In this document: positions 4,004 to 51,121 of the stretch, piece after piece
How positions within the stretch are numbered: the first letter of the stretch is position 1
How the letters are laid out: every line of letters begins with the position of its first letter
DNA from: a virus
Lineage: Duplodnaviria; Caudoviricetes
Direction: 5' to 3' (one strand)
Length of the DNA stretch: 64,000 nt
IMG/VR virus record: IMGVR_UViG_3300044655_001017
The notes under the pieces: model-generated
The model's input: the letters and a program-made list of their open reading frames with translations, nothing else
Told to the model about the DNA's origin: nothing
Databases searched by the model: none
Translations under genes and position numbers: made by a program

Positions 4004-4039
4004 ACATTCTCCTATTCCGTTATTTATTGCAGCAAAAAT

Positions 4040-5473: not shown

Positions 5474-5497
5474 ATTACTTCTCCTTGAGTGTTATCA

Positions 5498-5517: not shown

Positions 5518-5533
5518 TAGTAGGAGAACTATT

Positions 5534-6304: not shown

Positions 6305-6305
6305 C

Positions 6306-6334
6306 TTGACATTTTCCTAAGATGAGCGTATAAT
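6306..6334 (+). promoter_or_regulatory. sigma70 consensus promoter
   Basis: TTGACA-N17-TATAAT upstream of dNMP kinase. Confidence 0.85.
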
Positions 6335-6353
6335 GCGTTTTTAGGAGAATAAA

Positions 6354-6971: not shown

Positions 6972-7033
6972 CGCCATAAAATTACAATTTACTATAAATA
7001 CAGTTAGAACTTGTATATATGGAGATTATAATT

Positions 7034-34002: not shown

Positions 34003-34037
34003 AATAAATACTACAAATATATTTTAAAGGATTTACA

Positions 34038-37016
34038 ATGCGGTTACGCGAATTATACGAAACAATAAATCTGTTTGAAGCATACGATACTAAAGTTGCT
34101 AAACTACATAAAGAATTTGCTCAAATGCGAGCAGGCTTTCCAGAAAAGCCTGAAACACAATGGGGGCCTGCAGTACCCGCAATTCCAGGTGACCCAAATG
34201 TACCGGATGAAACTCAATTAGCAGCATTAGTTAGTTTTGCCGAACAAGCATTTAAGTCAGGTGCAAAACCATCTGAACAAGCAATGCAATGGTACTTGTC
34301 ATTACTTGAAACTTATTATAAACAAAACGATCCTAAGTTTGCAGGTAAGTTTGCTGCAATGTGCGGTGAATATCAATTTACTGATTTTAATTCATTAAAC
34401 AATGATCTAGCACATTTCTTCACATCAGAATATGCTGATTCACAGTATATAAAGGACATAGTTAAAGCAATTAGACCAGCTACTACTCAAATTGATAATC
34501 TTATTACTAATGCAACTGCAGCTGAACAAAGAATACATGCAGAACACGAAGCAGCACGTAAATTAGCAGGTCGTCCGGATATTAAATTAATGGAAGGCGA
34601 TCAAGTAATATTACCAGTAGATAACAAATATGATTGGTGGTGGTTACCATATAGATCACACGAGTTTGAATCGGCAGCTATGGGACATTGCGGTAACTGT
34701 CAAACATCTGATGGAAATATGTTAAGTCTTCGTACTAACAAACCTATATGGCCTGAATTAACATTTGAATGGAATCCACAAGATAAAATGTTATATCAAA
34801 CAAAAGGCCCTCATAATTCAAAACCTGCTCATAGATATCGTCCGGCTATTTTAAAATTAATGCTTAGTGATTTAATAAGCGGCATTGGTAATGACTCATA
34901 TCAACCAGCTAACGACTTTTCTATATTTGACTTTGAACCAGCAGATGTAAAAACAATTGCAGATCAAAAACCAGATTTGATTACTAGCCAAATAGTAAAG
35001 TATCCGATTGACTTTTTAAGAGCTCCAGAATTTATTAGAGCTATTCCTGAATTTAGAGATATTGCAGTACAAAACGCACGCGGACTAGCAGCACTAGTTG
35101 ACAATACTGGCAAAGTTAACACATCACTAGATGCATGGGAAGATGCAATCGAAGCTGACAGAAGTATTATTATTTACGCTCCGGAAAATCTTAAAGATTA
35201 TGAAGACCGAATTATCGATGCGTTAAAACGTGATTCATCATTGCTAGGATTTGCAAGTGCTAAGATTCGCGGTAATCACAAAATTATGTCTGAAGTAATT
35301 AGATGGAATCCTAACTCAATTGAACTAGTTCCTCTTAGAGCACCTGCATATGAAGAACTAGCACTACAAGCAGTTACAAAAAGAGGTGAGCTATTAAAGG
35401 CTATTCCTGTAGAAAAAAGAACATATGAAATGTGTCTTACAGCTGCAAAAAATCGCCAGCTATGGGATGAAACTCCATTGAGAGAGTTTTACGAATTGTT
35501 TAATACACTACCCTTTACTAAAGACCAACATAGTGAATTAGCTTCATTGGTATTACAATACGATACAGAAAATAAATTATTAGATTTACTACCGGCTAAA
35601 ATTAGAACATTCCTATCATCAATGGCTCGTCTTAAACGCAGTGAACGTGACTATTATGGTGACGACCGCGCAGTACACGTAAAAGAAATAGTTGATTCAG
35701 TTACTCCTGGTTCAGTATCTGATGAAGAATATATGAAAATCTGTTTAAAGGCAGGTGAATTATCATTCCACCGCGCAGTACCAACAGAATTCCAAACATA
35801 TGAATATTTTAAAAAATATATACTTACTATAGAACCAACTGCAAACCGTATTATTACACCGGTCTTTACTCCCGCGTTTAAACAATTACCGCCTGAACAA
35901 CGAGAAGAGTTAGTATCAATTGCTGTAAAGTTATGTCCTGAATCGTATTTTGAATTACCATACGAGTATAAACTTAACTTATCTAGAACACTGAAGATGA
36001 TACAAAAAACTGATAGACCGTTAACTCATGGCATCGTTGCCGATATTACACTAGCGGCAAGTGAAAATGGTGTAACTGACGAAGACTATGATAAGTTAAT
36101 TGCGTATTACAAACACTCGCTTAAAGAAAGTGATGGTTCAGCTATATCCTATTTAAAAAACTATGCATTGACGCAAGCTAAAAAATATAATAACGATGAT
36201 TGGTTTGACGTGTTAGCATATGGCGCTAAACTTAACTTAACAGAATTTATAAATATTTTAACTCCTGATTTTGTTGATAATAACTTCGAATGGGTTGTTG
36301 ATACTATATGTAAAGAATTTAGTCAGTCTAGCTCAAATTTGCACTTTAGTGTATTAACCAACCGATATCCTGAAATTGTTGTTGAATTATTCAAACGCCT
36401 ACCAACTAGTGAGCTAGGTAAACTACAATACCCGCATTATATAGAACAAATGTATGAACTTGATCCTCGCAAGTTTAAACGAGTATTAGAGATTATGGTA
36501 GATCGAGAACCGCATTTAATTGCAGAAATACAAAATTTAGTACCAGACTATATTCCAGAAACAGAACAACCTTGGTTAGATAGATTAAACCATAAAGGAT
36601 TTACTAATGGTGGAATTGCGGCATTAAAATATAACTTCCCAATAGAGCTACTAACTCCTGAACTATTAAATACTGCAATCCTTGGTGCAAATAGAATGGA
36701 TGCTAATATTGAAAGAAAAATAGAGGAGTTATACAAATACTATAAAGATAAACCGGAATACGACGCCGTATTAGAAAATATGTTAGATCTTGTACCTAAC
36801 ATAATTACAATGTTATCTCCTCAAGAGATTGAGCTGTTTCATGTAAAACGCTTTATAACGTATTTAGAAAACAAAAAACATCCACCAGAAAGTATACTGC
36901 TACATTTTAGAAGAGAACCATTTCCGTCAGCTGCATCCCTAAAACCAAACATCGCAGAATATCTAAACAAATATAAAGCAGAGAAAGCACCTAACCTTAG
37001 CACTATCTCTTTTTAA
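34038..37016 (+). CDS. Large protein: PcfJ-like domain plus DUF4116-like helical repeats
   Basis: ESAAMGHCG..LSLR..LTFE..LYQTKGPHNSKP; RTYEMCLTAAK repeats; late promoter at 34004. Confidence 0.55.
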   Translation: MRLRELYETINLFEAYDTKVAKLHKEFAQMRAGFPEKPETQWGPAVPAIPGDPNVPDETQLAALVSFAEQAFKSGAKPSEQAMQWYLSLLETYYKQNDPKFAGKFAAMCGEYQFTDFNSLNNDLAHFFTSEYADSQYIKDIVKAIRPATTQIDNLITNATAAEQRIHAEHEAARKLAGRPDIKLMEGDQVILPVDNKYDWWWLPYRSHEFESAAMGHCGNCQTSDGNMLSLRTNKPIWPELTFEWNPQDKMLYQTKGPHNSKPAHRYRPAILKLMLSDLISGIGNDSYQPANDFSIFDFEPADVKTIADQKPDLITSQIVKYPIDFLRAPEFIRAIPEFRDIAVQNARGLAALVDNTGKVNTSLDAWEDAIEADRSIIIYAPENLKDYEDRIIDALKRDSSLLGFASAKIRGNHKIMSEVIRWNPNSIELVPLRAPAYEELALQAVTKRGELLKAIPVEKRTYEMCLTAAKNRQLWDETPLREFYELFNTLPFTKDQHSELASLVLQYDTENKLLDLLPAKIRTFLSSMARLKRSERDYYGDDRAVHVKEIVDSVTPGSVSDEEYMKICLKAGELSFHRAVPTEFQTYEYFKKYILTIEPTANRIITPVFTPAFKQLPPEQREELVSIAVKLCPESYFELPYEYKLNLSRTLKMIQKTDRPLTHGIVADITLAASENGVTDEDYDKLIAYYKHSLKESDGSAISYLKNYALTQAKKYNNDDWFDVLAYGAKLNLTEFINILTPDFVDNNFEWVVDTICKEFSQSSSNLHFSVLTNRYPEIVVELFKRLPTSELGKLQYPHYIEQMYELDPRKFKRVLEIMVDREPHLIAEIQNLVPDYIPETEQPWLDRLNHKGFTNGGIAALKYNFPIELLTPELLNTAILGANRMDANIERKIEELYKYYKDKPEYDAVLENMLDLVPNIITMLSPQEIELFHVKRFITYLENKKHPPESILLHFRREPFPSAASLKPNIAEYLNKYKAEKAPNLSTISF

Positions 37017-37025
37017 GGAAAAATA

Positions 37026-39758
37026 ATGAGACTAAGAGAATTATACGAAACAATACAACTAGATGAAAACTATAATGGTAAGGTAAACAAACTTAAAAAC
37101 TCACCTTTGTTTGCACAAAACCCTGATCTACTACAAGACTTTGATGCACGACTTGGATGGGCTAAACAAGTGTTCAGTGATAAGAATCAACCTATGCTTT
37201 GGTATATCACACTATACGAAGCTTGGCTATTACAAGAACAAGACCCTAATGCAAAAACAAAATACGAAACAATGTTAGGCGGCCATCCACCTTTTGACTT
37301 TGCTGAATTTGAACAAACATTAAATCACTGGCTGTCTAGTGCATACGCAGAAAGAAATCAAATTAAAGACGTAGTTAAAAAGATCAACGCCCAAACTACA
37401 ACTGTTGATGCATTAATTAAAAACTTAGAAGCAGCTGAAGCAGTTATTAAAAAAGAAGATGAAGCTAAAGCTAAGAACGCAACTCCGATTGAAATACTTG
37501 AAGGCGACCATATTATATTGCCGCTTGGTAATCAAGGAGATTGGTGGTTACTACCTACTAGTTCTCATAAGGCAGAATCTAAGATTATGGGACATTGCGG
37601 TACAGCAGGAAACAACAAAAACGTACTATTGAGCTTACGTGATAAAACTCCAATACCTTGGGTTACTATGGAATACAGTGCTGACAACAAAGAACTACAT
37701 CAAATGAAAGGAAGATCTAATTCTAAACCTGCAAATAAATTCCATCATGCAATACTTGCATTATTAAAAAGCGATTTAGTTGACGGAATGTTTACTGGTC
37801 AAACATATCAACCAGCAAGTGACTTTTCTATATTTGATATGAACCCTGCAATGATAGAAGATGTTGCCGCTACTAAACCAAATCTTATAATGACTCAAAT
37901 TAAAAAGTATCCAATTGACTTTTTAAGAGCACCTCAAACGTTACGTGCAACTCCCGACTATAGAAACTTTGCTATATCATGCTTACCGGGTATTGCTGTA
38001 ATCTTAGACGAAGATGGCGTTACTTCAACAGATAACGACACTTGGGAAGAAGCAATTAACCAAGATCCTGGTATGATTATCTATTCACCCACTACATTAA
38101 AAGATTGGGAAAACCGTGTTACTAAATATTTGGTAAAAAATCATAGAAACTTAGGCTATTGCGGTAATCATATCCGTAGTAATTATAATATAATGAAAGA
38201 AGTAATTACACACGGAGATGCAGCTGCAATTGAATTAGTACCATACAGAGCACCTCAGTATAAAGAACTAGCATTACTTGCTATTGGACAATCGCCAATA
38301 TTGATTAAATCAGTAAACACAGAAGGCTGGTCTAAAGAGGAAATGAGAAAAGCATGGATGAATGCAGCTCATACATATTTAGATACAGAAGATTGGCCAG
38401 ATGAGTTATTTACACCTGAAGATGACAAAGAAATTTGGCGTACACAGGTTAAAAATAATAGATATTCAATTTCAAAAATTCCACCTGGATTGTTTGATGA
38501 ACAAGAATTAATTGAGGTATGGGGTGATGCAACTAAAGCACATCCTGGATTAATAAAGTCATCAGGGTTTATCAACTTAAATATCCCAAACGAAGCAAAA
38601 GATCAAATGAGAATTGCTGCAGTATTTGAACACCCAGAATATATTGCTGAATTTAGACCTGACTTAATTGAAGATGAAAATGATAGAATTGAACTTTGGA
38701 CTAAGGCATGTGATAGCTATCCTAACTTAATTACTGTACTTAAGAAAGCAGCAATACCTGATGAAGTTAAAATAGAATTAACTGTTAAGACAGTACGTGA
38801 TAATCCTACATATATTACAAATATTGATCAACGCTTAATACCTGATGAAAACGAAAGAATTGAACTTTGGATTAAAGCATGCAAAGTTCAACCAAAATAT
38901 AAAAATGATCCGCAATTTCCAACAGACGCATTCGATAGAAATCCTGCAAAACTAAAAGAATTATGGATTAGTATGTTTGAAACCACCTTACCTCATGATT
39001 GCCCTCGGTTGAATGAAATTCCAACAGAACTATTTACCCCAGAAGAATTAACTACATTAGCACGTAAAGTAATTGATAAAGACCCAAGCCAACTAATGTA
39101 CGCGCCGCCCTCTATAACAACTGCTGAAGAAAAATTAACTACTATTAAAGATCTTATGAATAGTGACCCGTGGAAGGTGATGAGCTCGCCACATAATCCA
39201 ACTCCGCCTGATCTGTATACTAGAGAACAAATTAAAGAAGTTTGGGATTATGCGCTTAGTAACGTTACTGACCCAGAATCAGATAGCAACGATGGCTATA
39301 TCGTAACGTCCGATTGGTTGCCATATCATATCGTTGATCAAGACTTGTTAAAGAGTGCTATACAACACGCTGCAATATACGACTATTATGAGAACGATTC
39401 TATATTAGCTAGAATAAATTATAATTTGCTCGAACGACTATTTACTCCAGCAGAAATAAGAAAGTTACATAAAGATGTGATATTAAATGCCAATTGCTAT
39501 ATGGAAGCCGGCGGACCGTTTGCTGCTATACCTCTAAATTATAGAACTTATGAGTTATGTAGATTTGCACTTGATCATGACCCGTCTAATATAAACATAG
39601 TGGTAGCATCAAAAGAAAACTTTACTGAACGTGAATTTGAAGAATTGCGGGCAATGTCCAATGACCCAATTGATGAAGAGTTTGTTAGAGATATACAACA
39701 ACATACCGCACATAACTCATTCCAAAATTACCGCCCATTACCATTTGAAGGACAATAA
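37026..39758 (+). CDS. Paralogue of 34038..37016
   Basis: Same MRLRELYETI start; ESKIMGHCG..LSLR..VTME..HQMKGRSNSKP; KYPIDFLRAP shared. Confidence 0.6.
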   Translation: MRLRELYETIQLDENYNGKVNKLKNSPLFAQNPDLLQDFDARLGWAKQVFSDKNQPMLWYITLYEAWLLQEQDPNAKTKYETMLGGHPPFDFAEFEQTLNHWLSSAYAERNQIKDVVKKINAQTTTVDALIKNLEAAEAVIKKEDEAKAKNATPIEILEGDHIILPLGNQGDWWLLPTSSHKAESKIMGHCGTAGNNKNVLLSLRDKTPIPWVTMEYSADNKELHQMKGRSNSKPANKFHHAILALLKSDLVDGMFTGQTYQPASDFSIFDMNPAMIEDVAATKPNLIMTQIKKYPIDFLRAPQTLRATPDYRNFAISCLPGIAVILDEDGVTSTDNDTWEEAINQDPGMIIYSPTTLKDWENRVTKYLVKNHRNLGYCGNHIRSNYNIMKEVITHGDAAAIELVPYRAPQYKELALLAIGQSPILIKSVNTEGWSKEEMRKAWMNAAHTYLDTEDWPDELFTPEDDKEIWRTQVKNNRYSISKIPPGLFDEQELIEVWGDATKAHPGLIKSSGFINLNIPNEAKDQMRIAAVFEHPEYIAEFRPDLIEDENDRIELWTKACDSYPNLITVLKKAAIPDEVKIELTVKTVRDNPTYITNIDQRLIPDENERIELWIKACKVQPKYKNDPQFPTDAFDRNPAKLKELWISMFETTLPHDCPRLNEIPTELFTPEELTTLARKVIDKDPSQLMYAPPSITTAEEKLTTIKDLMNSDPWKVMSSPHNPTPPDLYTREQIKEVWDYALSNVTDPESDSNDGYIVTSDWLPYHIVDQDLLKSAIQHAAIYDYYENDSILARINYNLLERLFTPAEIRKLHKDVILNANCYMEAGGPFAAIPLNYRTYELCRFALDHDPSNINIVVASKENFTEREFEELRAMSNDPIDEEFVRDIQQHTAHNSFQNYRPLPFEGQ

Positions 39759-39829
39759 AAAAGATGACAACATACTGACCCTGCGAAGCAGGCGGTAAAA
39801 CAATTTTTCAGCTTTTAGATACTAACCTT

Positions 39830-39861
39830 AAAATAAAACCAGCAACAGCTGGTTTTATTTT
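39830..39861. terminator. Bidirectional terminator
   Basis: aaaataaaaccagc-aaca-gctggttttatttt between convergent blocks. Confidence 0.85.
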
Positions 39862-40009
39862 GGCCCCAGGCCCTACATAATAAAATCCGGCCCCTACATG
39901 GTTACGATATCGTGAAATCCACTGTTTATTCACTGTGCTTATGGATTAGGGGCATAACAGTATATTCACCATTTTAACAAGTTTTCTAGACCATCCAAAC
40001 ACCGTAGAA

Positions 40010-40228
40010 CTATTCACTACGGTTGCGTATGGTAGACTTAACTTCACTTATGGTAGATTCCAGCCTTGAGATTTGACGCGCTTGACGTTCTACCGTTTCC
40101 ATTAGACGGTTGACTAGCGTATATAGATGGCTAGAGTCACTGTGCATAAACTTACTGCTACCATTTTCAAACTCTACTCGGCCCGGGACTATGCTTTTCG
40201 GGACCGGCTCTTGATTATATTGTTCCAT
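40010..40228 (-). CDS. Small coiled-coil hypothetical protein
   Basis: 72 aa with GGAG RBS. Confidence 0.55.
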   Translation of the reverse strand: MEQYNQEPVPKSIVPGRVEFENGSSKFMHSDSSHLYTLVNRLMETVERQARQISRLESTISEVKSTIRNRSE

Positions 40229-40732
40229 ACTAACTCCACTGTGTGTATACTGTATATATCACTGTGACGCCACTGTAGAGGTAGGGTGCGGGCCGAAAGG
40301 GTCCTAGGGGTCTAAAAAATTTCCCGCGCAAAAAATTAGAGAGAAGTACTTACAGATTCTCCCTGGTGATTTAGTACCTATGGGGTTAAATTTAGAGGAG
40401 TTTTTAGAGTTTTTAGAGTTTAGGGAAAAAAGGTTGCGTTGTTGTAAAAAAACAACAAATTGTTGTATTATATGTCCCCCCACCCCTCGGGGCATTGTAT
40501 TGCGTTACACTATTATAGCACACTACACACTACATTGCAAGCTTTTTTTACGCAAAAAACTAAAAAAATAAAAAAATAATTTAACATTTTTTTAAAAAAA
40601 CGCTTGCTATTTTTTTAAATTACTGTATAATATGCTGTAAGTTAAGTAGTTAAGCAGTTTACTTAACTAGCGCACTAAATGTGTGCATACACGTTTAGTG
40701 CTACATTATACGCACTAAAAAAGGGCATAACT

Positions 40733-41113
40733 ATGTTAGACAATATTACAGTACAAAGCATTGCAAGTAAAAGCAACAAAACCGTGCAATGTGTAGGGGT
40801 TAGCACGCACGAAAAAGCGACAATAGGCACTAAGATACGTTTTAGCGGTAAGCCCGATAGTAGTGCGCGTGTTAGCACGCTAATTGCAACAAAATTGCAC
40901 AGCGACATAATTATGTGCGATTTAAGTGCGCAGGTTAGCGAATTGCAAGGCGCGGTTATAGTGCGCGATACGTTAGCAGATACAGACTACTTGCAAGCGC
41001 ACCAATTAAGTGCAATAGATAGCTACATTGCTAAATACAGTACGCACGAAATTAGTGCAGCACGGGAAAACATTAGCAATAACAATATTAAAATTGTTAA
41101 AATACTAATGTAA
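40733..41113 (+). CDS. Early protein, K(I/V)RF...H(S/T)DI family, copy 1
   Basis: Own promoter and terminator; paralogue of 43310..43693 and 48826..49179. Confidence 0.7.
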   Translation: MLDNITVQSIASKSNKTVQCVGVSTHEKATIGTKIRFSGKPDSSARVSTLIATKLHSDIIMCDLSAQVSELQGAVIVRDTLADTDYLQAHQLSAIDSYIAKYSTHEISAARENISNNNIKIVKILM

Positions 41114-41125
41114 CACAGTAACACA

Positions 41126-41158
41126 GCAACTACACTGCAAAGTGTAGTTGCTTTTTTA
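41126..41158 (+). terminator. Rho-independent terminator
   Basis: agcaactacact-gcaa-agtgtagttgct-ttttt. Confidence 0.85.
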
Positions 41159-41327
41159 CTTGCTTTTTTAGTTTGTTTATGCTATAATAACGCATAGTAA
41201 AAAGTTAAAATAAAAAGCTATAGCGGGGCCGTCGGTGGCCAAGACAGACTGGATTTGAAAAGGCCGGAACCGAAACCACTATCCGATAGCTCTCCAAGTA
41301 TCTACCATAGCTCTCCACCTAGACCTC

Positions 41328-41366
41328 ACTGTATCCTTACTGTATCCTTACTGTATCCTTACTGTA
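41328..41366. repeat. 11-bp tandem repeat (ACTGTATCCTT x3.5)
   Basis: Directly visible; reads AAGGATACAGT on minus. Confidence 0.9.
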
Positions 41367-41407
41367 CCGGCAACAGGTGCTATATTAGTATAGCACCTTT
41401 CCCCACC

Positions 41408-41557
41408 TTAGTCAACTAAGTCTTTAAACCGTTTTATCTTACTAGTAAAGCGTGCCGCGTGTTCCTTACGTGTAAGGCTAAGCACGGTAACAAACGCTCC
41501 GCTTAATGCGTATGCGTTTCGTTTATATATGTAACCATAATAGTTGTTTGTTTGCAT
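41408..41557 (-). CDS. Small early protein (49 aa)
   Basis: ATG after promoter and ACAGCGTG leader. Confidence 0.55.
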   Translation of the reverse strand: MQTNNYYGYIYKRNAYALSGAFVTVLSLTRKEHAARFTSKIKRFKDLVD

Positions 41558-42153
41558 AGTATGTTGCACGCTGTAGTTGTTTAGTAAGTGCATATTATAG
41601 CACGCTACACAAAAAATGCAAGCATTATTTTTACAAACAATAACCACACACAACCACCTATCCATAACCCCAATTTTCAAATATCTCACAGCGGGGCCTT
41701 TATAAAAGTGGTCACTTATGGCAAATGGATACAAGCGGTAAGCACTAACGCAAATTTGCGTTTTAAGCGTTGTTTGTTGTGTACTGCTATAGTTGCATTG
41801 CTTAGTATATAAACGCGTATTGTGTACACGTTAACGCGCAAGTTTTAGCAATGTAAATTATAAATGCTAAGTGTATTTTACACGCGCACGACAAATATTA
41901 AAAGTTTACAGCGGGGTATTGATATACCGGTTGCTCATTATGCTATACTATAGTATAATATTGGTATATTGAAACGTTGGTAAGATGGTAAAGAGGTTGA
42001 GGGCAGAGATAAGGGAAAGCCCGGTCCATTGCATACTGGATTCCGGGCTTTGGGCATACTATGTAAGTATGTTGTATGGTTGGTGAACAAATGCTACTAC
42101 CCATCTGCCCACCTGAGGTCTTTAGTCTTTACAGCGGGGCCTTTCTATAGGTC

Positions 42154-42231
42154 CTACTTTGTTTTGCGTCTAATTACTCGACGGCATGCGATTGTACTTT
42201 TTTTGGTTGCGCGATCGGATCTTCTTGCCAT
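42154..42231 (-). CDS. 25-aa basic peptide MARRSDRATKKSTIACRRVIRRKTK
   Basis: Promoter at 42278-42305, GGAGA RBS; absent from ORF track. Confidence 0.45.
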   Translation of the reverse strand: MARRSDRATKKSTIACRRVIRRKTK

Positions 42232-42338
42232 GTTGTTCTCCAGTGTTGTTGTAAAAAAGTATTTAACGTTTTAACTATTATACTATAGTGTTAAAGTAAA
42301 TGCAAGCACTTTTTACAGTGCTTGCATTGTGTTATTGT

Positions 42339-42698
42339 TTAATTAACAGTGCTATTTTGCACTTGTTTAACATACTTATTAAATGTTTTTTTAGTAACAC
42401 ATTTTATGTAAGCGTTGTTAATTTGCATTTGCGTTAAATTAGCGTTATTTGCTAGCGTTACTGTATAGCTAACACTGTAATTGCTAGCAAAGTTAATGTT
42501 AGCAACAAAAGCACTGCTAACATAGCATAACACATAATTTTTAGCTGCTTTGTATATTGTACGCTTTGCGTGTTTTTGCTTTGTTGCTATTACTTTGTTA
42601 TTAGCTACATAAGCGTTAAGCACTTGTAACATAGCTTGTTGCGTTGCTTTGTTACTGTTTTTTTGCGCTTGTTTGCGCGTTGCTGTAATTGTTTGCAT
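42339..42698 (-). CDS. Early protein (119 aa) with no Asp, Glu, Gly, Pro or Trp
   Basis: Own promoter (42765-42792) and terminator (42299-42328). Confidence 0.6.
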   Translation of the reverse strand: MQTITATRKQAQKNSNKATQQAMLQVLNAYVANNKVIATKQKHAKRTIYKAAKNYVLCYVSSAFVANINFASNYSVSYTVTLANNANLTQMQINNAYIKCVTKKTFNKYVKQVQNSTVN

Positions 42699-42805
42699 AA
42701 TATACACACTATAGTTAAATTGTTAAAAAGCGTATGTTAAACGTAATTGCTTAACACAGTGCATATTATACACGTTTGTGTACAATATGCAAGCGTTATT
42801 TTTAA

Positions 42806-42982
42806 TTATTTTAGCAGTGCATCAAACGCTCCGCAAAACCCTGCAAACGCTATTGTTATCGGAGTAGCAACCAGCATCCACGTTACCGCGTCCACCATGA
42901 AGTTCATAACTCCATATTGCGTGTTACGCGCGTTTGCTTGTTTGTTTAAAAAATTTTGTACTGTTTGTTGTTTAGTTTGCAT
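42806..42982 (-). CDS. Small early membrane protein (58 aa)
   Basis: Promoter 43019-43046; hydrophobic C-half. Confidence 0.55.
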   Translation of the reverse strand: MQTKQQTVQNFLNKQANARNTQYGVMNFMVDAVTWMLVATPITIAFAGFCGAFDALLK

Positions 42983-43309
42983 AGTAGTAAGCACGCTGTT
43001 GTTGTTTAGTAAGTGCATAGTATAGCACGTTTAAAAATAATTGCAAGCTTTATTTGTATATTGTTTTCCGGTTGCCCAACACCTGCGAAGCCGGGGGGGG
43101 GGGGTGGTTGGTCGGTCTGTCCGATTGCCTAGCGGTCTAGTCCGGCTCTGTGGTGTGCATAGTATAGCACGTTTGTGTTGTAATTGCAAGCACTTTTTTA
43201 TTTAATTTTAGCATAGTAGTTTGCACGCTGTAGTTGTTTAAGTAGTGCATAGTATAGCATAGTTAAAACAAAAACGCAAGCACTTTTTACAGTGCTTGCG
43301 CTTGCTATG

Positions 43310-43693
43310 TTATTTAAGCACTGCTATTATTTGCACGTTATTAGTGCTTAATTCGTCTTGTGCATTGCTTTGCTCTTGTGCATTAAACTTATTTACAAAA
43401 GCTTGCATTGCACTATTTTGTTGCTCGTTATGATGTTCGCCTTGTTGTAGTGCAACAAGTGTTGCAGCTAATTCCGTGCATTGCACGTTTAAAGTGTAAA
43501 ATACTATATCGCTATGCTCTTTTGTTGCTAAAAGCGTGCTTACGCGTGCTTGCGCTGTTTTATCTGTAAAGCGTACTTTATAACCTATTGTCGCTTTAAC
43601 GTGCAAGCTTGCGCCTACTGCTATTACTTTTTTAGTGCTTGCGTTAATGCTGTTAACTACAATGTTTTGCACGCTAATGTTGCTGTTTGTCAT
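43310..43693 (-). CDS. Early protein, KVRF...HSDI family, copy 2
   Basis: GGAGCG RBS, tandem promoters, terminator 43274-43300. Confidence 0.7.
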   Translation of the reverse strand: MTNSNISVQNIVVNSINASTKKVIAVGASLHVKATIGYKVRFTDKTAQARVSTLLATKEHSDIVFYTLNVQCTELAATLVALQQGEHHNEQQNSAMQAFVNKFNAQEQSNAQDELSTNNVQIIAVLK

Positions 43694-43975
43694 TTTCTCG
43701 CTCCGAGTGTTGCACTAAAATAGTGCTATTAGTTAATACTGCTGTTTGTTACTACAAGTGCTATTATACGCTGTTTATTTGCACTTGTAAAGCGTTTTTT
43801 TAAAATACTTTTAAAACGCTTTTTTGTTGCACTGCTTTACTACAAAAACTATTATACGCTTTTTTGCGTAAATGTAAAGCGTTTTTTTATTTTATTTTTT
43901 GCTTGCATTTACTGTTTTATTGTGTTATAATAGCGCAAGCGTAAAGCCCGCGCTACCGGTTCTCTCTATACCGCC

Positions 43976-44173
43976 TTACCTCATATCGCTGTCCGCCGCT
44001 TTATCACAGCGTGTCGCATATCCGGTGAGCACCGACTCATTCAACTTATCGAGGAGTTGAACTTCCATTGCCCGGTGTTGTTGGCACTCAGCTAGTGTTG
44101 GATATATGAATGTGTTATCAATTTCCTGCGCCCCAATAAACATCATCACTTTCAATATATATAATGCTTCCAT
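43976..44173 (-). CDS. Small early protein (65 aa)
   Basis: Promoter 44221-44249, GGAGCA RBS. Confidence 0.6.
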   Translation of the reverse strand: MEALYILKVMMFIGAQEIDNTFIYPTLAECQQHRAMEVQLLDKLNESVLTGYATRCDKAADSDMR

Positions 44174-44264
44174 TGTTCTTGCTCCGCTTGTTACGTTAGC
44201 TTTATTGCTAACTTGCATATAGTATAGCAAACTATTAAACTATATGCAAGTGTTTTGTTTTCGA

Positions 44265-44438
44265 CTAGTCCACTAATGCACTTGCTCTAAGATCCACAAA
44301 GTTCGCATACTTCATTGTGTCTTTTGTTTCTCTGCGCTCACGTAGTAGTGCAGTCCGGGCACGCTCGACTTCTCTGCGGGTCTGTACACCAATTAGTCTT
44401 GCGCTCAACACTGCCGTATATTCTTGTACCGGTTTCAT
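44265..44438 (-). CDS. Small basic early protein (57 aa, MKPVQEYTAV...)
   Basis: AGGAG RBS; absent from ORF track. Confidence 0.55.
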   Translation of the reverse strand: MKPVQEYTAVLSARLIGVQTRREVERARTALLRERRETKDTMKYANFVDLRASALVD

Positions 44439-44501
44439 TCTATGCTCCTAATGGTTTCAAAAGTTCGTTGTTGTCAGCACGTCCATGTGCCCTGTGTTAG
44501 T

Positions 44502-44801
44502 TTATAGTCCGTACATTTCAGCTACGCTGTTTGCCACACGTCCGTCGTTACCCCATTGTACTTTAATGCAACCCGGATGTTCATTGCCCAGTGCTGCCAA
44601 CTTAGCAAGTGCCAATTCCCAGTTGTTTAGTTTGTCTACTGGTTTCGGAGCGTCAGCACTTGTAAAGTAGTTAGCTGGTGGTACCTTACGTTCCGGAACA
44701 TTGCTTTTACTTGTTTTCACTTTGCCGCCTGCTTCCAAAAACGCTTGTACTGCATTGTTTGTTGCTGTGTTTTTTGCTTGTTTGTTTGTATTAGTAAACA
44801 T
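44502..44801 (-). CDS. Early protein with SutA-like RNAP-binding motif
   Basis: NAVQAFLEAGGKVKTS. Confidence 0.55.
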   Translation of the reverse strand: MFTNTNKQAKNTATNNAVQAFLEAGGKVKTSKSNVPERKVPPANYFTSADAPKPVDKLNNWELALAKLAALGNEHPGCIKVQWGNDGRVANSVAEMYGL

Positions 44802-44976
44802 AATTTGCACGCTGTAGTAGTGTTAACAGTTAAACGTTATTGCTTAACTTGCATATAGTATAGCAAAGCAAAACTGGTATGTAAAGCGTTTTTTTTAAGT
44901 GTTGTTTCCATTGTGCCCACGCGTGTACACATAAACAGCGGGGCCTTTTCGGCACTTCCCTGTGCCGTTGTATCCG

Positions 44977-45318
44977 TTATAGTCCCGATCCGCATAAGCA
45001 GTTATACACAAACTCAGCATCCTGTAATGCCACATTGTTTATGTAATCCACTAAGTCCTTGTGCTCCTCTACTTCCTCTACAAACGCTTGTACCGCAGCA
45101 TCATCGTTCCACAAGTCATCATGTGCTTCGTAATGTCTGTTGTATATTGTTACCATTTGCGCAATTATATGCACCGGATGTTCAGTAGTGCCCCACTCCT
45201 CCGCATAGTTCTCGTCCGCCAACATAAACACTGTACTTGTTACGCTGGGAGTTAGCGGGTACTTGCTTGTGTTTGCGTTTGCTGTGTTAATTTTTGTTGC
45301 TGTAGTAGTATTTTGCAT
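44977..45318 (-). CDS. Early acidic protein, tandem duplicate A
   Basis: YNRHYEAHDDLWNDDAA shared with 45487..45834. Confidence 0.7.
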   Translation of the reverse strand: MQNTTTATKINTANANTSKYPLTPSVTSTVFMLADENYAEEWGTTEHPVHIIAQMVTIYNRHYEAHDDLWNDDAAVQAFVEEVEEHKDLVDYINNVALQDAEFVYNCLCGSGL

Positions 45319-45486
45319 AGTTAGCACGCTGTAGTTATAAGTTAGCTTAATTGCTAACTTGTACATATTATAGCACGTTTAAACATTTTGTAAAGCGTTT
45401 TTTTAAGTTTTGTTTTCGCTGTTACCATACGCGTGTACACATAGCAGCGGGGCCTTTCCGAGCACGTCCATGTGCTCTGTGTTATC

Positions 45487-45834
45487 TTACAAGCCCGAGC
45501 AACATAAGCAATCATACACAAACACTGTGTTCTGTAATGCCACATTGTTTATGTAATCCACTAACTTCGCATTGTCCTCAACTTCCTCTATACACGCTTG
45601 CATCGCAGCATCATCGTTCCACAAGTCATCATGTGCTTCGTAATGTCTGTTGTATATCTCTGCTATCTTTAATACTATGTGTGTCGGATGTGTCGTTGTG
45701 CTCCACTCCTCCGCAAAGCTCGCATCCGCCAACAGTGCCAGCACACTTGTTTTGCTCGGATAGTACCCGGGCAATTTGCTTGTGTTTACGTTTTGTGTGT
45801 TAATTTTTGTTGCTGTAGTAGTATTAGTTTGCAT
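45487..45834 (-). CDS. Early acidic protein, tandem duplicate B
   Basis: Paralogue of 44977..45318 including promoter and 3' elements. Confidence 0.7.
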   Translation of the reverse strand: MQTNTTTATKINTQNVNTSKLPGYYPSKTSVLALLADASFAEEWSTTTHPTHIVLKIAEIYNRHYEAHDDLWNDDAAMQACIEEVEDNAKLVDYINNVALQNTVFVYDCLCCSGL

Positions 45835-46013
45835 AATAAGCACGCTGTAGTAGTGTTAACAGTTAAGCGTTATTGCTTAACTTGTACATAGTATAACACG
45901 TTTAAACATTTTGTAAAGCGGTATTTTAGAGTATTGTTTCCGACATAACCGGGGGGGGGGTGGTCGGTCGGTCTGTCAGATTGCTTGGCACTTCCCTGTG
46001 CTCGATATATCAG

Positions 46014-46385
46014 TTATGCCATTATGCTCGCTACTTCAGTGTATCGTTGTTTCAATCTTTCGATCATATGGAGTAAGTCGACATTAAAGACTAAGTCATA
46101 TACATCGCTTTCCGTTGTACTCACTATACCAATTGCACTCGTGTAATGGAGTTGTTCGACTATAGTCGTTACAGTCGTTACATCTATTTTCAATTGTTTC
46201 GATACTTCGGCTAGTAACACTTTCGAAACTGTCTTGCGATCTCTGTCCGCTAGTCTATGAAACCCTTTTGCCAACATCCTTGCAACATCGGTATTTTGGC
46301 GTATCGTTGCACCAATGCTATCGTTATGCTCGTGTAACTCGTTTAAAAACTTAATATGGTTTCTCAATACTGTTTGGATAATCAT
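46014..46385 (-). CDS. Hypothetical early protein
   Basis: 123 aa, GGAGCG RBS. Confidence 0.65.
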   Translation of the reverse strand: MIIQTVLRNHIKFLNELHEHNDSIGATIRQNTDVARMLAKGFHRLADRDRKTVSKVLLAEVSKQLKIDVTTVTTIVEQLHYTSAIGIVSTTESDVYDLVFNVDLLHMIERLKQRYTEVASIMA

Positions 46386-46450
46386 TATGCGCTCCAGTTA
46401 ATCAGTTAAGTACGCGCATACTCGATATATGCGCGTGTAAACAGCGGGGT

Positions 46451-46717
46451 CTATTGGCGTGCTTTGATTGCCGATTGCACCTGCTTGTTCAACAGCCCAA
46501 TTGCCGCTAGCTCCTCTTTAGCTTGTTCCCATGTGTATCGTTGTTTCTCTACTACAACTACGCGGGGAGTATGGACTTGTGATACTGTAGTGCGTCCTCT
46601 GCGTCCTGTTTTAGTTGTTTTAATTGCTCCTCCGGTTGCTAAGAACATTGCCACGCGAGCCGCTAACTCCGCTGCTTGTTGTTGTTTAACTTCGTTGTTC
46701 ATAATACCTGTTGCCAT
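46451..46717 (-). CDS. Early protein with SutA-like RNAP-binding motif
   Basis: LAARVAMFLATGGAIKTT; GGAGCG RBS. Confidence 0.55.
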   Translation of the reverse strand: MATGIMNNEVKQQQAAELAARVAMFLATGGAIKTTKTGRRGRTTVSQVHTPRVVVVEKQRYTWEQAKEELAAIGLLNKQVQSAIKARQ

Positions 46718-46878
46718 TATACACGCTCCGCTTTATCGTTAATGTCAGTTTCTTCAGTTTGCTCACAATCCCAACATGGTTCAAGCTCATCTGTTTCCAT
46801 GTTGTATAGTACAGTCAAGTCCCCACACGTAGTGCAATACGCGCGTAGTGGGTAAGTGTTTTTGTATTGTACTTGCAT
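46717..46878 (-). CDS. Small Zn-ribbon-like protein (53 aa)
   Basis: CTTC...CWDC; promoter 46912-46940. Confidence 0.55.
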   Translation of the reverse strand: MQVQYKNTYPLRAYCTTCGDLTVLYNMETDELEPCWDCEQTEETDINDKAERV

Positions 46879-46983
46879 AATTTTTACACGCTGTTTTGTT
46901 AATGTGTGCATATTATAGCATTGTAACACGCGCATTGCAAGTAGTTTGTTAACCGCAATGCGCGTGTACATAAGCAGCGGGGC

Positions 46984-47400
46984 CTATACGGTAGTTACGA
47001 GCAACAAGTTGTCCAACACATCCGCTTTAGCTCTGTATACCATGTTGCCGTGTCTCGTATGCTCAATTACAATCCCATTTGCCTCACACCACAAGTCCAA
47101 ACGCGCTGCTCTTAAGCTCACTTTATCTTTAAACTGTGGTTTGTTGACTTTAACGGCAATAAACTTTTTTCTGTAGTTCATAAACACGTTGCTCTGTATA
47201 TACACATCCTCAATGTGTGCTAACAACGCTTCCCCTGCGCTCAATTGCACTAAGCTATACAAACTCTCATTCTCAGCGTCTCTGCGTTTAATATCCTCTA
47301 AGCACACGTAAGCTGGAAGTTTGACGTCATCCGATGTGTGTGATACAGCGTGTACAATAGCAGTAGCTGTGTTTTTGAGTAATTTAGTAGTTGTTGACAT
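46984..47400 (-). CDS. Hypothetical early protein
   Basis: 138 aa, GGAGCG RBS, own promoter. Confidence 0.65.
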   Translation of the reverse strand: MSTTTKLLKNTATAIVHAVSHTSDDVKLPAYVCLEDIKRRDAENESLYSLVQLSAGEALLAHIEDVYIQSNVFMNYRKKFIAVKVNKPQFKDKVSLRAARLDLWCEANGIVIEHTRHGNMVYRAKADVLDNLLLVTTV

Positions 47401-47505
47401 ATGATACGCTCCGAAAGTTATGTTAAGTTTTAAACAGTTAGCTGTTTTGCTAACTTGTACATATTATAGCAAACTAAGTACAAGTTAGCAAGTGATATTT
47501 TTGAA

Positions 47506-47694
47506 CTATAGTTCCACTAGCTCGCCGCGTGCTACTGCGTCCGCAGCTTCTAGTTCCTCTTTATAGAACTTGTTGATAGCATTGTTTGTTTCGAGATACG
47601 ATTTGGAGTTTTTGGCTTGTGTACGCAATTGGCGTGTGAGCATGTTAATGTATTTGATACGCGCGGCGCTTGTGATGTAAAGTATTTTTTGCAT
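47506..47694 (-). CDS. Small early protein, NSKxYLE family
   Basis: NSKSYLETNNAINKFY; paralogous to 48161..48418. Confidence 0.6.
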   Translation of the reverse strand: MQKILYITSAARIKYINMLTRQLRTQAKNSKSYLETNNAINKFYKEELEAADAVARGELVEL

Positions 47695-47793
47695 AATATA
47701 CACGCTATAGTTATAAGTTAGCTTAATTGCTAACTTGTACATATTATAGCAAACTATATACAAGTTAGCAAATGGTATTTTAGAACTTTGTTT

Positions 47794-48066
47794 TCACCCT
47801 TCCGGATAGCAACCAGCTTCCATCATTGCATAGATAACTCGTTCTCTTGGTAGAGTATCTTGATATACCAGCGAGTTGATTAACTGATCGTAGTCGCCGC
47901 TTTTCATATAACTGATTAAACACTTTTGGTTGTACTTGCCATCTTCAATTGCCAAGTCCATAAAGTCCCACTCATCTGCTTCGGCATACTCTTTTGCTTG
48001 AGCATTGAAGTCGGTAACACATTGTTTGAGGGTAGCGATTACAACAGGATTAGTAGTGTTTGGCAT
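47794..48066 (-). CDS. Hypothetical early protein
   Basis: 90 aa, own promoter. Confidence 0.65.
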   Translation of the reverse strand: MPNTTNPVVIATLKQCVTDFNAQAKEYAEADEWDFMDLAIEDGKYNQKCLISYMKSGDYDQLINSLVYQDTLPRERVIYAMMEAGCYPEG

Positions 48067-48160
48067 AGTAGTTTACACGCTGTAGTAGTTAAGTAAGTGT
48101 ATATTATAAAGCATTGCAGGCGGTTTGTAAAGAACTTTGTTAACCGCCTGCCGGTATATA

Positions 48161-48418
48161 CTACGCGGCTTCTAATTGCGCCAATGCAAACGCTTCATCA
48201 AGTGCCATCTCCGCAATGTATATACGGTTTAACTGAGTGTTGGCTTCCAGGTAAGCTTTGGAGTTAACACGCGCGGCACTGATTTGAGAGCGGAGCGAAC
48301 GGATTTGGCGGGCGGTCGCTTCCGATACAAGGCGCTTTGGCTTTTGGGCAGCTGCCTCCGCTTCGGCTTGCTTGTGTGCTTTAAGTTTGGCTGCTAACGA
48401 TACATTGTATTTTGACAT
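48161..48418 (-). CDS. Small early protein, NSKxYLE family
   Basis: NSKAYLEANTQLNRIY. Confidence 0.6.
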   Translation of the reverse strand: MSKYNVSLAAKLKAHKQAEAEAAAQKPKRLVSEATARQIRSLRSQISAARVNSKAYLEANTQLNRIYIAEMALDEAFALAQLEAA

Positions 48419-48587
48419 AGTAGTTTACACGCTTGTTGTTAAGTAAGTGCATATTATACTATAGTATGCACTGGTTGTCAAGAACTTTATATTCACCCGC
48501 GCTCGCACACGCGTAAACAGCGGGGTCTATCCGGGGGGGGGGAGGTCGGTCGGATTGGCCGGTTATTCGCTGCCCCCAATCTATCGG

Positions 48588-48761
48588 TTACTCATCGTCC
48601 CATATGTCGTCCCAGTCTATTGGTGTGTAGGCATCATCTATATCGTCTCCCCAGTCTTCGTCCATTCCTGCAAAGAACTCTTTTCGCTCTTGCATTAAGG
48701 TCGCACCGCGTGTTTGAAGTATTGCTAACTGCTCTCTTAAGTTTTGCTCTATAGCTTCCAT
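48588..48761 (-). CDS. 57-aa protein with highly acidic Asp/Trp tail
   Basis: ...DEDWGDDIDDAYTPIDWDDIWDDE; GGAGC RBS; absent from ORF track. Confidence 0.6.
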   Translation of the reverse strand: MEAIEQNLREQLAILQTRGATLMQERKEFFAGMDEDWGDDIDDAYTPIDWDDIWDDE

Positions 48762-48825
48762 AACAGCTCCGACTAATTAGTTAAGTCGCCCCGCCATACA
48801 CACATATGCAGCGGGGCCTATTACT

Positions 48826-49179
48826 CTATGCTACTGCTAACTCAGCTTCCAGTGCATCTGCTGCTGCCGCGTAGTCCACTTCCTCAACTACTACACTTTG
48901 TGGAGCAACCACTGTGTACTTGCTAAAGAAGTCATCGAATGCTTGTTGTGCATCTAAGTCCTCTAACTCTGTGTAGTTCTTAATTGCCATTGCTGCATCA
49001 TACTTGGTCATTGCACCGTCTAGCGCAAACAATCTAATGTCTGTGTGTCCATTGCGTTGTAACACTTTCACACGATCCGCTTTGTTAGCAAATCGTACTT
49101 TGTACACACCATTTAAGTTGCTGATGCCAGCGAAAGTAAATGTTTTTTCAACTGCAGTAACTGTGATTAAGTTTGACAT
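48826..49179 (-). CDS. Early protein, KVRF...HTDI family, copy 3
   Basis: KVRFANKADRVKVLQRNGHTDIRL; GGAGCG RBS. Confidence 0.7.
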   Translation of the reverse strand: MSNLITVTAVEKTFTFAGISNLNGVYKVRFANKADRVKVLQRNGHTDIRLFALDGAMTKYDAAMAIKNYTELEDLDAQQAFDDFFSKYTVVAPQSVVVEEVDYAAAADALEAELAVA

Positions 49180-49273
49180 ATTGTACGCTCCAAAAAATAG
49201 AAAAGTTAAGTTGTTTTACTGCTAGTTAGCTAACGCGCTTGTTAGCTAACTTGTTACATATTATACAGCATTT

Positions 49274-49507
49274 TTAAAACATTGCAAGCATTTTGTTTTC
49301 TCTTGCTTCAAGTATTGCATCAATACGCGCCTCAACACTCTCTGCGCTCTCAAGTGTTGTCCAGCCGCCGTTGTTGTGGCGTCCATCTTGTACTGAAGTT
49401 TCCATAATTCCTGTGTTTCTATTTTTATACTCCGACACTGTGATAGTAGTGTTAAAGTAGATAGTAACGATGTTGTTGCTTGTTGTAGTAATTTTTAATT
49501 TATACAT
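49274..49507 (-). CDS. Hypothetical early protein (77 aa)
   Basis: Own promoter, GGAGCG RBS; 3' end carries next -35 box. Confidence 0.6.
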   Translation of the reverse strand: MYKLKITTTSNNIVTIYFNTTITVSEYKNRNTGIMETSVQDGRHNNGGWTTLESAESVEARIDAILEARENKMLAMF

Positions 49508-49577
49508 AATACGCGCTCCGCATTGTTGTTTAACTTGTACATAGTATAGCAAACTTATTTTGGTTTGTAAAGAAGTT

Positions 49578-49667
49578 TTAAATCACTAGCTCATACCAGT
49601 TCAATACAGCGATTGCGCTCAATAATACGATAGTAGTGAATACTGCGAATGTGTGTATAAACGACAT
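49578..49667 (-). CDS. 29-aa hydrophobic peptide
   Basis: TTGACA promoter and AGGAGC RBS; single TM-like stretch. Confidence 0.45.
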   Translation of the reverse strand: MSFIHTFAVFTTIVLLSAIAVLNWYELVI

Positions 49668-49737
49668 TTTGTTTGCTCCTCATATATATAGTACACGCAT
49701 AGTATAGCAAACTACATACAGGTTGTCAACTGGTTTG

Positions 49738-50304
49738 TTACTCGGTGTATGCCGCCATTACCAATCCCACATAGTTCTGAGTCTCCGGATATGGTGGAAC
49801 CTTATTCTTATGCCGCATCACCGCATGCTCGCCCGCATTGTAACCGGCTACTGCTAGTTTGGTATCTTTGAATGTATCGAGCAAGAACCTTAGGAACCGA
49901 ACTCCACCTTCAATGTTCTGTCTTTCATCCATCCGATCACTCACTCCAAATCGCTCTGCCGTTGCCGGCATCAGCTGCATCAATCCAGCCGCACCTTTCT
50001 TACTTACAGCCGATTTGCGATATGTACTTTCCGTTTTAATGACTGCATGTACCAACTTCTCATCCACTCCATACTTCTTTGCAGCGATATGAACATAGTG
50101 ATTGACTTCCCATCGGGTTAATGGTTTGGTCTCCGGTTTCGCTACTATAGTAGTATGAACAACTGGTTTGGCTGCAGTATTGATCTCAACCGGATGATCT
50201 GTTAACCAAACTCGCCCATCCGCTCCCGTATATCTATATACATCCGCATTCACCGGCATTACTACTATAGTAGCGAGAATGGCAGCGCGGATCATTTGGC
50301 GCAC
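49738..50304 (-). CDS. Lytic transglycosylase (SLT) with signal peptide and DUF4124-like N-domain
   Basis: AVIKTES catalytic Glu, GAAGLMQLMP, AGYNAGE, PPYPETQNYV; DVYRYTGADGRVWLTD. Confidence 0.92.
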   Translation of the reverse strand: MRQMIRAAILATIVVMPVNADVYRYTGADGRVWLTDHPVEINTAAKPVVHTTIVAKPETKPLTRWEVNHYVHIAAKKYGVDEKLVHAVIKTESTYRKSAVSKKGAAGLMQLMPATAERFGVSDRMDERQNIEGGVRFLRFLLDTFKDTKLAVAGYNAGEHAVMRHKNKVPPYPETQNYVGLVMAAYTE

Positions 50305-50588
50305 TCTGCTGCGAACTTAACCATTGCTGCATACTCTGGATTGGCTACAGCGGTGACTACATGAGTAAGTAAATGAGCAATCATTGTAATCCCACCGATC
50401 CATGCTACGATCATTACACATGCATAGGTAAACGCATCCGATCCATTGAACTCATCTTTTAATAACTTAAACAGATAGTATGATCCAGCTAATACTCCAG
50501 ATATTACTACTATAGCGGCAATGTCTGGAATGGTGTCTATAATAGCTTGCTTTGCCAATAACTCTTGTGGTACATTGCATAACTTCAT
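50292..50588 (-). CDS. Two-TM membrane protein
   Basis: 98 aa, own promoter, GGAGCG RBS. Confidence 0.6.
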   Translation of the reverse strand: MKLCNVPQELLAKQAIIDTIPDIAAIVVISGVLAGSYYLFKLLKDEFNGSDAFTYACVMIVAWIGGITMIAHLLTHVVTAVANPEYAAMVKFAAECAK

Positions 50589-50989
50589 AACGCGCTCCGC
50601 AGTTGTTGTTTAACTTGTACATATTATAGCATACACAGCGGGGTCTGTAAAGAACTTTGTTACTCGTATACGCCCACTTGTATGTGCGCGTGTAGCGTGT
50701 TATATTATAAGCGCATAGCATACTATAGTATAAGTATGCTCACGCACTATAGCGCATTTATACGCGATATACGCTATGATACACTATAGTATAATAATAA
50801 GCGCATATACACATATGAGTAACTATGCACAGCGGGGCCTTTTATAGGTCCAGGACTCGATAATAACTCGTCATCTTCGGTTTTTGGCCCGCGTCGTTAG
50901 CGGTCTGCAACACCATGATTTTGCCGTTTTTCACGTTTATAGACCGACCTAGTACCAGAGTACAGGGTCCGGTTAAAAAGAATAAGAAA

Positions 50990-51104
50990 AAGCTCACTTT
51001 AGGGAGCGAATCTAAAGTGAGCTTATAGAGTTACTATAGTATAGGGAGCGAATCTATACTATAGTATATAGAGTATAGTTGGGAGCGAATCAACTATACT
51101 CTAT
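50990..51104. ncRNA. Three tandem hairpins with identical 11-nt loop (candidate regulatory RNA element)
   Basis: Perfect 12-13 bp stems of different sequence around GGGAGCGAATC at 51002, 51044, 51081. Confidence 0.6.
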
Positions 51105-51121
51105 TCATATGCGCGTTATTA

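Follow-up and report, generated by a model that had tools for sequence, protein, structure and literature searches.

The window analyzed here (the whole 64,000-nt stretch of virus record IMGVR_UViG_3300044655_001017; Duplodnaviria, Caudoviricetes) contains a 119-codon gene that encodes no Asp, Glu, Gly, Pro, or Trp and lies in a tract from which four dinucleotides are entirely missing. Judged from its sequence, the source is an uncultured freshwater giant myovirus of the T4 superfamily; core genes in the window include those for the tail sheath and a DnaB-like helicase, among others, and the sheath shared approximately 40% identity with its counterparts in Agrobacterium phage Atu_ph07 and Pseudomonas phage PA5oct. 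The coding sequence occupies positions 42339–42698 of the minus strand (119 codons plus TAA) and specifies a protein of 13.4 kDa with a predicted pI of 10.2 (N17 A16 K14 T12 V12 Q11 Y8 S7 I6 L5 M3 F3 R2 C2 H1). With 14 Lys, 2 Arg, and zero acidic residues, the protein has a net charge of +16. Ser was encoded only by AGC or AGT, and Arg only by CGC or CGT. An earlier reading made from the letters alone (hereafter, the sequence-only reading) had reported the five missing residues and the AGY-only Ser codons, and the composition of the open reading frame (ORF) agreed with it. The five residues together make up 25.9% of late-gene products, and finding none of them in 119 residues therefore has a probability of P = 3e-16.

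The gene has the predicted layout of a stand-alone early cassette of approximately 0.5 kb, consisting of promoter, 5′ hairpin, leader, ORF, and terminator, all on the minus strand. A sigma-70-type promoter was read from the sequence at 42765–42792 (-35 box TTGCAT, 42787–42792; 16-nt spacer; -10 box TATAAT, 42765–42770), with transcription predicted to start near 42758. The TTGCAT-16-TATAAT arrangement was conserved in three lineages, and its -35 box was too weak for a consensus promoter scanner. The leader opens with a hairpin (GUGUUAAGC-loop-GUUUAACAU, 42733–42758), the pairs of which were kept among relatives, some of them through one- or two-sided changes; a hairpin of the same kind opens other early leaders. 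An unstructured A/U-rich segment follows (42699–42732) and ends in the ribosome-site-like sequence ACTATAGTGTGTATATT directly before the ATG. The folding energy of the leader was no better than that of shuffled sequences (z = -0.13), and conservation supports only the 5′ hairpin; 36 nt of the leader were invariant in the three lineages. Downstream of the gene, a conserved terminator-like hairpin of approximately 11 pairs (AATGCAAGCAC-loop-GTGCTTGCATT, 42299–42328) can form on both strands. The promoter and terminator that the sequence-only reading had assigned to the gene were thus both located, and both were conserved in the homologues. In the early region, neither Rfam nor a tRNA scan gave anything above threshold.

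The sequence leading into the gene reads ACTATAGTGTGTATATT-ATG-CAA-AC, and ACTATAGTGTGTATATT itself has no step from G to a purine. The pattern ACWAYAGYGTGY-N4-8-ATG occurred 10 times on the minus strand between 41.5 and 48.1 kb and once, as a chance match, on the plus strand. Each of the ten minus-strand matches (41557–48066) precedes an ORF, mostly with an ATGCAA start (MQ...). The ban described below forbids a Shine-Dalgarno sequence, and ACWAYAGYGTGY stands in for one. The motif also implies that the annotated starts of 42806–43018 and 44977–45366 are too far upstream, translation probably beginning at 42982 and 45318 instead. Other early genes, those not within the strictest tracts, carry a GGAGCG ribosome site. 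The loop of three minus-strand hairpins at 50990–51104 is the same in each, GAUUCGCUCCC, and it is the complement of the GGAGCG tag found at the ribosome site of some early genes; as the 119-codon gene has no such tag, it would escape any control by these hairpins. Directly past the terminator of the gene, at 42153–42231 on the minus strand, a GGAG site is followed by an ORF of 25 codons whose product, MARRSDRATKKSTIACRRVIRRKTK, would be a very basic peptide; the start of this ORF is conserved in the related locus L005.

Direct dinucleotide counts confirmed the absence on which the sequence-only reading had been built. Within 42241–42822 (582 nt), GA, GG, TC, and CC were all at zero, so that the tract is free of the four steps on either strand, and the remaining twelve dinucleotides occurred 16–112 times each. 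Over the whole window the same four accounted for 15.6% of dinucleotide steps. The tract spans the entire transcription unit and the beginning of the next one, and its 222 noncoding bases obey the same ban as its coding part. It is the longest of twenty runs of at least 60 nt; the others measured 62–242 nt, and all but two of the twenty lay at 40.5–50.7 kb. Homologous tracts of 533–630 nt were present in loci L001, L005, L006, and L017. Locus L017 also contains, at 12230–12931, approximately 700 nt of noncoding DNA that is free of the four dinucleotides save at one point and includes long A/T runs and a tandem repeat of GCATAGCAAGCGCATA-like units. Just past the terminators at tract borders stands a motif rich in banned steps, GGCCCCGCT (message strand), placed like punctuation between cassettes; it was found in the sequence at 42131, with copies after other terminators, and downstream of the gene in L001 and L006.

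A sequencing or assembly artifact was rejected as the source of the tract, the gene DNA being identical on 10 contigs, which come from JGI and ENA samples independent of one another. The footprint of a hypermutation process or a deaminase was judged unlikely: strain differences showed no excess of transitions, and the ban stands at zero rather than at a mutational equilibrium.

Homologues of the protein were recovered from a word-indexed search of 5.8 billion proteins (two matches, 81% and 68% identity) and from IMG/VR (a third, 79% identity), and all three were without Asp, Glu, Gly, Pro, and Trp. They preserve the reading frame, and the sole length difference among them is in frame. Substitutions at codon positions 1, 2, and 3 numbered 15, 16, and 41 in one comparison and 24, 22, and 54 in another, with a clear excess at the third position, and Nei-Gojobori dN/dS was 0.16–0.24 at a dS of 0.8–1.1. 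An ATG-initiated ORF of at least 119 codons arose in only 1 of 2000 dinucleotide-preserving shuffles of the tract, so a stop-poor composition does not account for the open frame. On this comparative evidence, we regard 42339–42698 as a real protein-coding gene whose product is under purifying selection. Homologues with codon-level conservation, the absence of which the sequence-only reading had linked to a chance ORF, do therefore exist. Contigs from four lake-water RNA libraries of one study, representing a strain approximately 97% identical, covered 42330–42757; the six variants listed inside the ORF were three synonymous and three conservative changes, none of which breaks the ban. These contigs run into unlike sequence at both ends and so mark no transcript start or end, and DNA carry-over is possible; they establish presence in RNA libraries and not a mapped transcript.

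The view that the frame is open by chance in stop-poor constrained regulatory DNA, the functional unit being an RNA or DNA element, can draw on the barring of TGA and TCA by the rule, the lack of a known protein family, a low-confidence structure model, and the long noncoding tract of L017, but it is very improbable and close to refuted given the rarity of such a frame among shuffles, the low dN/dS, the three-base periodicity of substitutions, an only indel that is in frame, and a conserved start module common to nine other ORFs.

The ban is strict and is actively maintained by selection over the whole cassette. Among the single-base changes possible in the gene, 49% would introduce a forbidden step, but the fixed differences included no such change (0 of 72 relative to L001, P = 7e-22; 0 of 100 relative to L003, P = 4e-30). 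Likewise, no amino acid replacement was to Asp, Glu, Gly, Pro, or Trp (0 of 23, 0 of 33, and 0 of 38; P = 2e-3 to 4e-5) under a null built from BLOSUM62 exchange frequencies, in which changes to these residues from Asn, Lys, Gln, Ala, Ser, and Thr would be common. When the same protein was back-translated with late-gene codon usage, forbidden dinucleotides averaged 17, with a minimum of 6 in 20,000 trials; amino acid content alone is thus no explanation, because synonymous choices and codon junctions also comply. The constraint lies on the nucleic acid and not on the protein, because compliance extends to the noncoding flanks, to synonymous sites, and to codon junctions. Under a ban on GA, GG, TC, and CC, no codon remains for Asp, Glu, Gly, Pro, or Trp, and the 15-letter alphabet is a by-product of this nucleic acid rule, not a property selected in the protein. 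The sequence-only reading had proposed that a DNA-level constraint reshaped the protein alphabet. Its first half stood for a constraint on nucleic acid, be it the duplex or the transcript, and the diverged relatives also comply; that an earlier alphabet was reshaped is not shown, no homologue having been found outside four lineages that obey the ban. Every known homologue already obeys the ban, and for this reason a reshaped ancestor is not demonstrable and birth within banned DNA is equally compatible with the data.

The gene belongs to an array of small genes at approximately 40.5–50.7 kb, nearly all on the minus strand, each following a strong sigma-70-type promoter and many ending in a 3′ hairpin. 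In typical early units the ban begins a short way upstream of the -35 box and holds across the leader and the opening 11–35 codons, and the combination of promoter, 5′ hairpin, start motif, and MQT... start forms a module repeated among the units. Shared ancestry accounts for part of this pattern. It does not account for it alone, because the unique 360-nt body of the 119-codon gene also complies; that body had no paralogous DNA or peptide elsewhere within the window. Among nine neighboring genes, Pfam gave only subthreshold matches, except for a lytic transglycosylase (SLT) domain in 49738–50304.

Two array members comply with the rule in part. The genes at 40733 and 43310 are mutual paralogues (E = 2e-27). 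In 43310, 13 forbidden dinucleotides were forced by the amino acid and 3 were avoidable (2.4 avoidable per 100 codons), and in 40733 the numbers were 17 and 11 (8.7 per 100 codons); late genes had 16–28 avoidable forbidden dinucleotides per 100 codons. At several aligned positions 43310 has fewer Asp, Glu, and Gly residues than its homologues, and it represents the intermediate state. The sequence-only reading had called both genes paralogues that mostly use GA or GG only when forced; the counts favor the statement about usage, but paralogy to the 119-codon gene was not detectable and was rejected (BLASTP E = 0.25 over 36 residues; hhalign probability 0.1%). N-terminal runs free of Asp, Glu, Gly, Pro, and Trp, which it had also noticed in early proteins, were found at 45318 (20 residues), 44801 (22), and 49507 (25). 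In the family of 43310, 40733, and their homologues P0005–P0016 (the A4 family), several database members have a 40-residue N-terminal extension poor in the same five residues (MQTKTKKAKKTLAFTVNKVYN...), which probably reflects gene callers starting too early in stop-poor banned leader DNA. Pro was missing from nearly all members of this family.

Comparison with related loci indicated that the unit comes and goes as a block. The core of the mobile cassette (42316–42781, minus strand) was present in the window, L001, L003, and L017. In L204 this segment is replaced by 246 nt, and in L200 the segment 42243–42781 is replaced by 53 nt; the left breakpoint of the cassette falls inside the promoter spacer, and in the strain of the RNA libraries the break was at 42757/8. 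The more distant loci L200, L202, L203, and L204 have the same early module and gene order, with many ban-compliant promoter tracts of 80–232 nt, and are without the 119-codon gene. In 1.31 Mb surrounding the helicase of 80 relatives, tracts of at least 90 nt were found only in the two closest loci. A complete related genome (IMGVR_UViG_3300042350_002797, 364,554 bp, loci L098–L116; hereafter G002), the helicase of which is 76% identical, had no tract of at least 80 nt over its entire 364 kb, and the whole early module between DnaB and the ATPase was absent. The helicase-to-ATPase interval measures approximately 17 kb in the window (34003–51121) and approximately 4 kb in G002 (2952–7000), the ATPase itself (51122–52000) being 69% identical in G002. 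In the window this interval holds two large DUF4116-type proteins and the early array, and the early module looks like an accessory insertion.

These features resemble the PeSL (promoter-early plus stem-loop) cassettes of T4-type phages (Arbiol et al. 2010, PMC2839356; Comeau et al. 2014, PMC4122927). As in PeSLs, a small orphan early gene lies between a terminator hairpin and an early sigma-70-type promoter, both conserved here; it is gained or lost among close relatives, with breaks inside a repeated regulatory motif; and the variable region falls between core genes of a T4-type myovirus. In the passages of those accounts that were consulted, no dinucleotide ban is described for PeSLs, and the repeated module found here has in addition a hairpin at the 5′ end, a start motif that is not of the Shine-Dalgarno type, and the MQT... 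start.

Protein searches returned nothing beyond the gene's own cluster, and the gene is an orphan. A HMMER profile search of 1.84 billion representative proteins recovered only that cluster, with no homologue from phages lacking the bias. Pfam gave no match for the product at E ≤ 0.1, tblastn against 50,697 phage records gave none, a near-identity DNA search of these records with the 40–46 kb region likewise gave none, and the ESM Atlas yielded no usable match. An AlphaFold2 model built on a three-sequence alignment was unusable (pLDDT 43, pTM 0.32). The gene may be young, having either originated in banned DNA or been transferred as a cassette. Its charge suggests that the product binds a polyanion early in infection, with DNA or RNA the probable partner.

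Taken as a whole, the explanation that we consider best combines an early cassette gene under selection, a ban acting on the duplex, avoidance of a G-directed enzyme, a young gene, and a polyanion-binding product, and we hold it with slightly more confidence than doubt. As for the rule itself, we tentatively prefer, at well short of even confidence, a single duplex rule in which, on both strands, no G stands before a purine. GR is the exact complement of YC, which fits a single DNA rule, and the spacer between the divergent promoters at 40506–40637, presumably untranscribed, obeys the ban in three lineages. Early-cassette DNA would in this account be kept free of target sites for a G-directed enzyme, and host RNA polymerase might then be able to use the early cassettes on the injected genome. 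By analogy, the leading candidate for the reader is a 7-deazaguanine transglycosylase of the DpdA type, because characterized phage DpdA enzymes act at GA and GGC: GA and GGC are the targets in CAjan (MEME motif GRH; PMC7544227), and GA is the target in iggy (PMC10484667). The banned step, G followed by a purine on either strand, is the context that those enzymes read, and the tract is without GA or GG(C) on both strands; a difference is that DpdA3-type systems replace all G in cultured phages (PMC10516641). In its most specific form, the proposal is that early cassettes are islands without G-purine steps, that the evaded enzyme is the phage's own base-swapping or hypermodifying system or else a host defense, and that the rule produced and maintained the 15-letter protein, possibly de novo; we judge this version rather unlikely as it stands.

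Several observations weigh against the preferred explanation. CAjan, with a proven GA/GGC-specific DpdA, had a longest GA/TC-free run of only 81 nt, when approximately 77 nt was expected. In G002, genes for FolE, a QueE-like radical-SAM enzyme, and a phosphoribosyltransferase are present, whereas the long tracts are not. The spacer at 40506–40637 is so A/T-rich that its compliance is modest evidence, and for nucleic acid binding by the protein the charge is the only support. A Pfam TGT (PF01702) scan of the records of six relatives gave no match, but this does not show that the relatives have no DpdA, since DpdA3 is too divergent for that model and G002 has the FolE, QueE-like, and phosphoribosyltransferase genes.

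The best-surviving alternative to a duplex rule replaces it by two complementary bans at the level of the transcript, YC being avoided to escape Rho loading on the ribosome-free 5′ message and GR to escape an RNA-directed defense enzyme that reads G-purine, for example a CmdT-like mRNA ADP-ribosyltransferase or a RegB-like RNase that cuts GGAG; the gene would then be a "stealth" message, its protein alphabet again a by-product. Readers with suitable preferences are known. Rho reads series of UC and CC dinucleotides on nascent RNA, and its avoidance shapes coding-strand composition (Nat Microbiol 2026, PMC13323073); CmdT, of the CmdTAC defense, ADP-ribosylates the adenine in GA of single-stranded RNA and acts weakly at other purine-purine steps (PMC11618068). 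The message of the 119-codon gene is without UC and CC from start to terminator, neighboring early messages are UC/CC-poor, and the message, having no GA, would offer no CmdT target. Moreover, the promoter, leader, and first 11–35 codons, over which the ban typically extends, represent the part of the message exposed before ribosome cover. Nevertheless, GA and GG are banned here together with UC and CC, the ban is absolute and not a bias, and it includes the promoter DNA and the spacer at 40506–40637, both of which obey the two bans though expected to lie outside either transcript. CmdT reads GA strongly and GG only faintly, and GG, TC, and CC are banned as well as GA. Two independent readers with exactly complementary motifs would be required. 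On the message strand of early genes outside the tracts, avoidable YC numbered 3–5 per gene and avoidable GR 12–21, with the ratio reversed in late genes, which speaks for this alternative; amino acid needs predict the same coding asymmetry (GR is unavoidable for four common residues, YC for Pro alone), and comparable strand asymmetry was common in the tract-free G002, so that the asymmetry was not used as evidence. We consider the two-ban explanation possible but doubtful.

Less well placed is the proposal that early-cassette DNA is hidden from defenses that read GA, TC, GG, or CC motifs, such as restriction enzymes, phosphorothioate-dependent systems, CRISPR PAMs (CC, TTC, NGG), or TC/CC-preferring deaminases or ADP-ribosyltransferases acting on single-stranded DNA. 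In approximately 10 kb of tracts pooled from the window, L001, L003, L017, L200, and L204, the most depleted permitted tetramers were all palindromes (CATG, 0.16 of expectation, 5 vs. approximately 32 expected; CTAG, 0.37; AGCT, 0.54), and CATG was the lowest of all 256 tetramers in positions 40001–64000 of the window. AGCGCT, GTGCAC, and GCGCGC/ACGCGT showed site avoidance in the window phage and in G002, the first two being nearly absent in both, which argues that this DNA is under restriction pressure. Of the 16 four-base palindromes, however, the four-dinucleotide ban eliminates just 4, and permitted ones other than the three depleted were frequent in the tracts (TGCA 145, GCGC 68, TTAA 212). 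Strain differences mix transitions and transversions, with no deaminase-type bias. Since cutting anywhere kills the phage, avoidance confined to DNA close to promoters would call for a further premise, for example genome entry in steps or exposure coupled to transcription. We regard this proposal as improbable. Separately, sites were compared by their flanks for a sign of G-purine-specific protection. RCATGY reached 0.66 of its expected number in the window and 0.74 in G002, and palindromic hexamers had equal median depletion with and without G-purine steps. A further observation concerns RCGCGY (ACGCGT, ACGCGC, GCGCGT, and GCGCGC), which occurred 0 times in G002 when approximately 31 were expected and was not depleted in the window, whereas YCGCGR was 1.9-fold enriched in G002; the pattern in G002 points to a host enzyme of that specificity or to flank-dependent protection.

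Motif and dinucleotide avoidance is known from restriction sites and from CpG and UpA suppression in RNA viruses, where, as here, codon choice gives way to a nucleic acid constraint and amino acid usage shifts with it. Those cases are statistical biases, whereas here a whole functional gene is written without a single copy of 4 of the 16 dinucleotides and its product is missing five amino acids. Literature searches on phage dinucleotide avoidance and on PeSLs yielded no description of such a gene, and a gene under an absolute four-dinucleotide ban with five lost amino acids represents an extreme, undescribed variant of motif avoidance shaping a coding sequence. If the account given here is true, the gene is a natural experiment in reduced-alphabet proteins, with a bearing on the minimum number of amino acid types and on the origin of genes from noncoding DNA. 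The cassette is short and self-contained and can be synthesized with and without the banned steps. An absolute ban kept through saturating synonymous divergence would imply that a reader of G-purine (or of pyrimidine-C) is decisive in the first minutes of infection, and finding that reader would show either a new rule for the transcribability of modified phage genomes or a defense or termination mechanism that is evaded by recoding.

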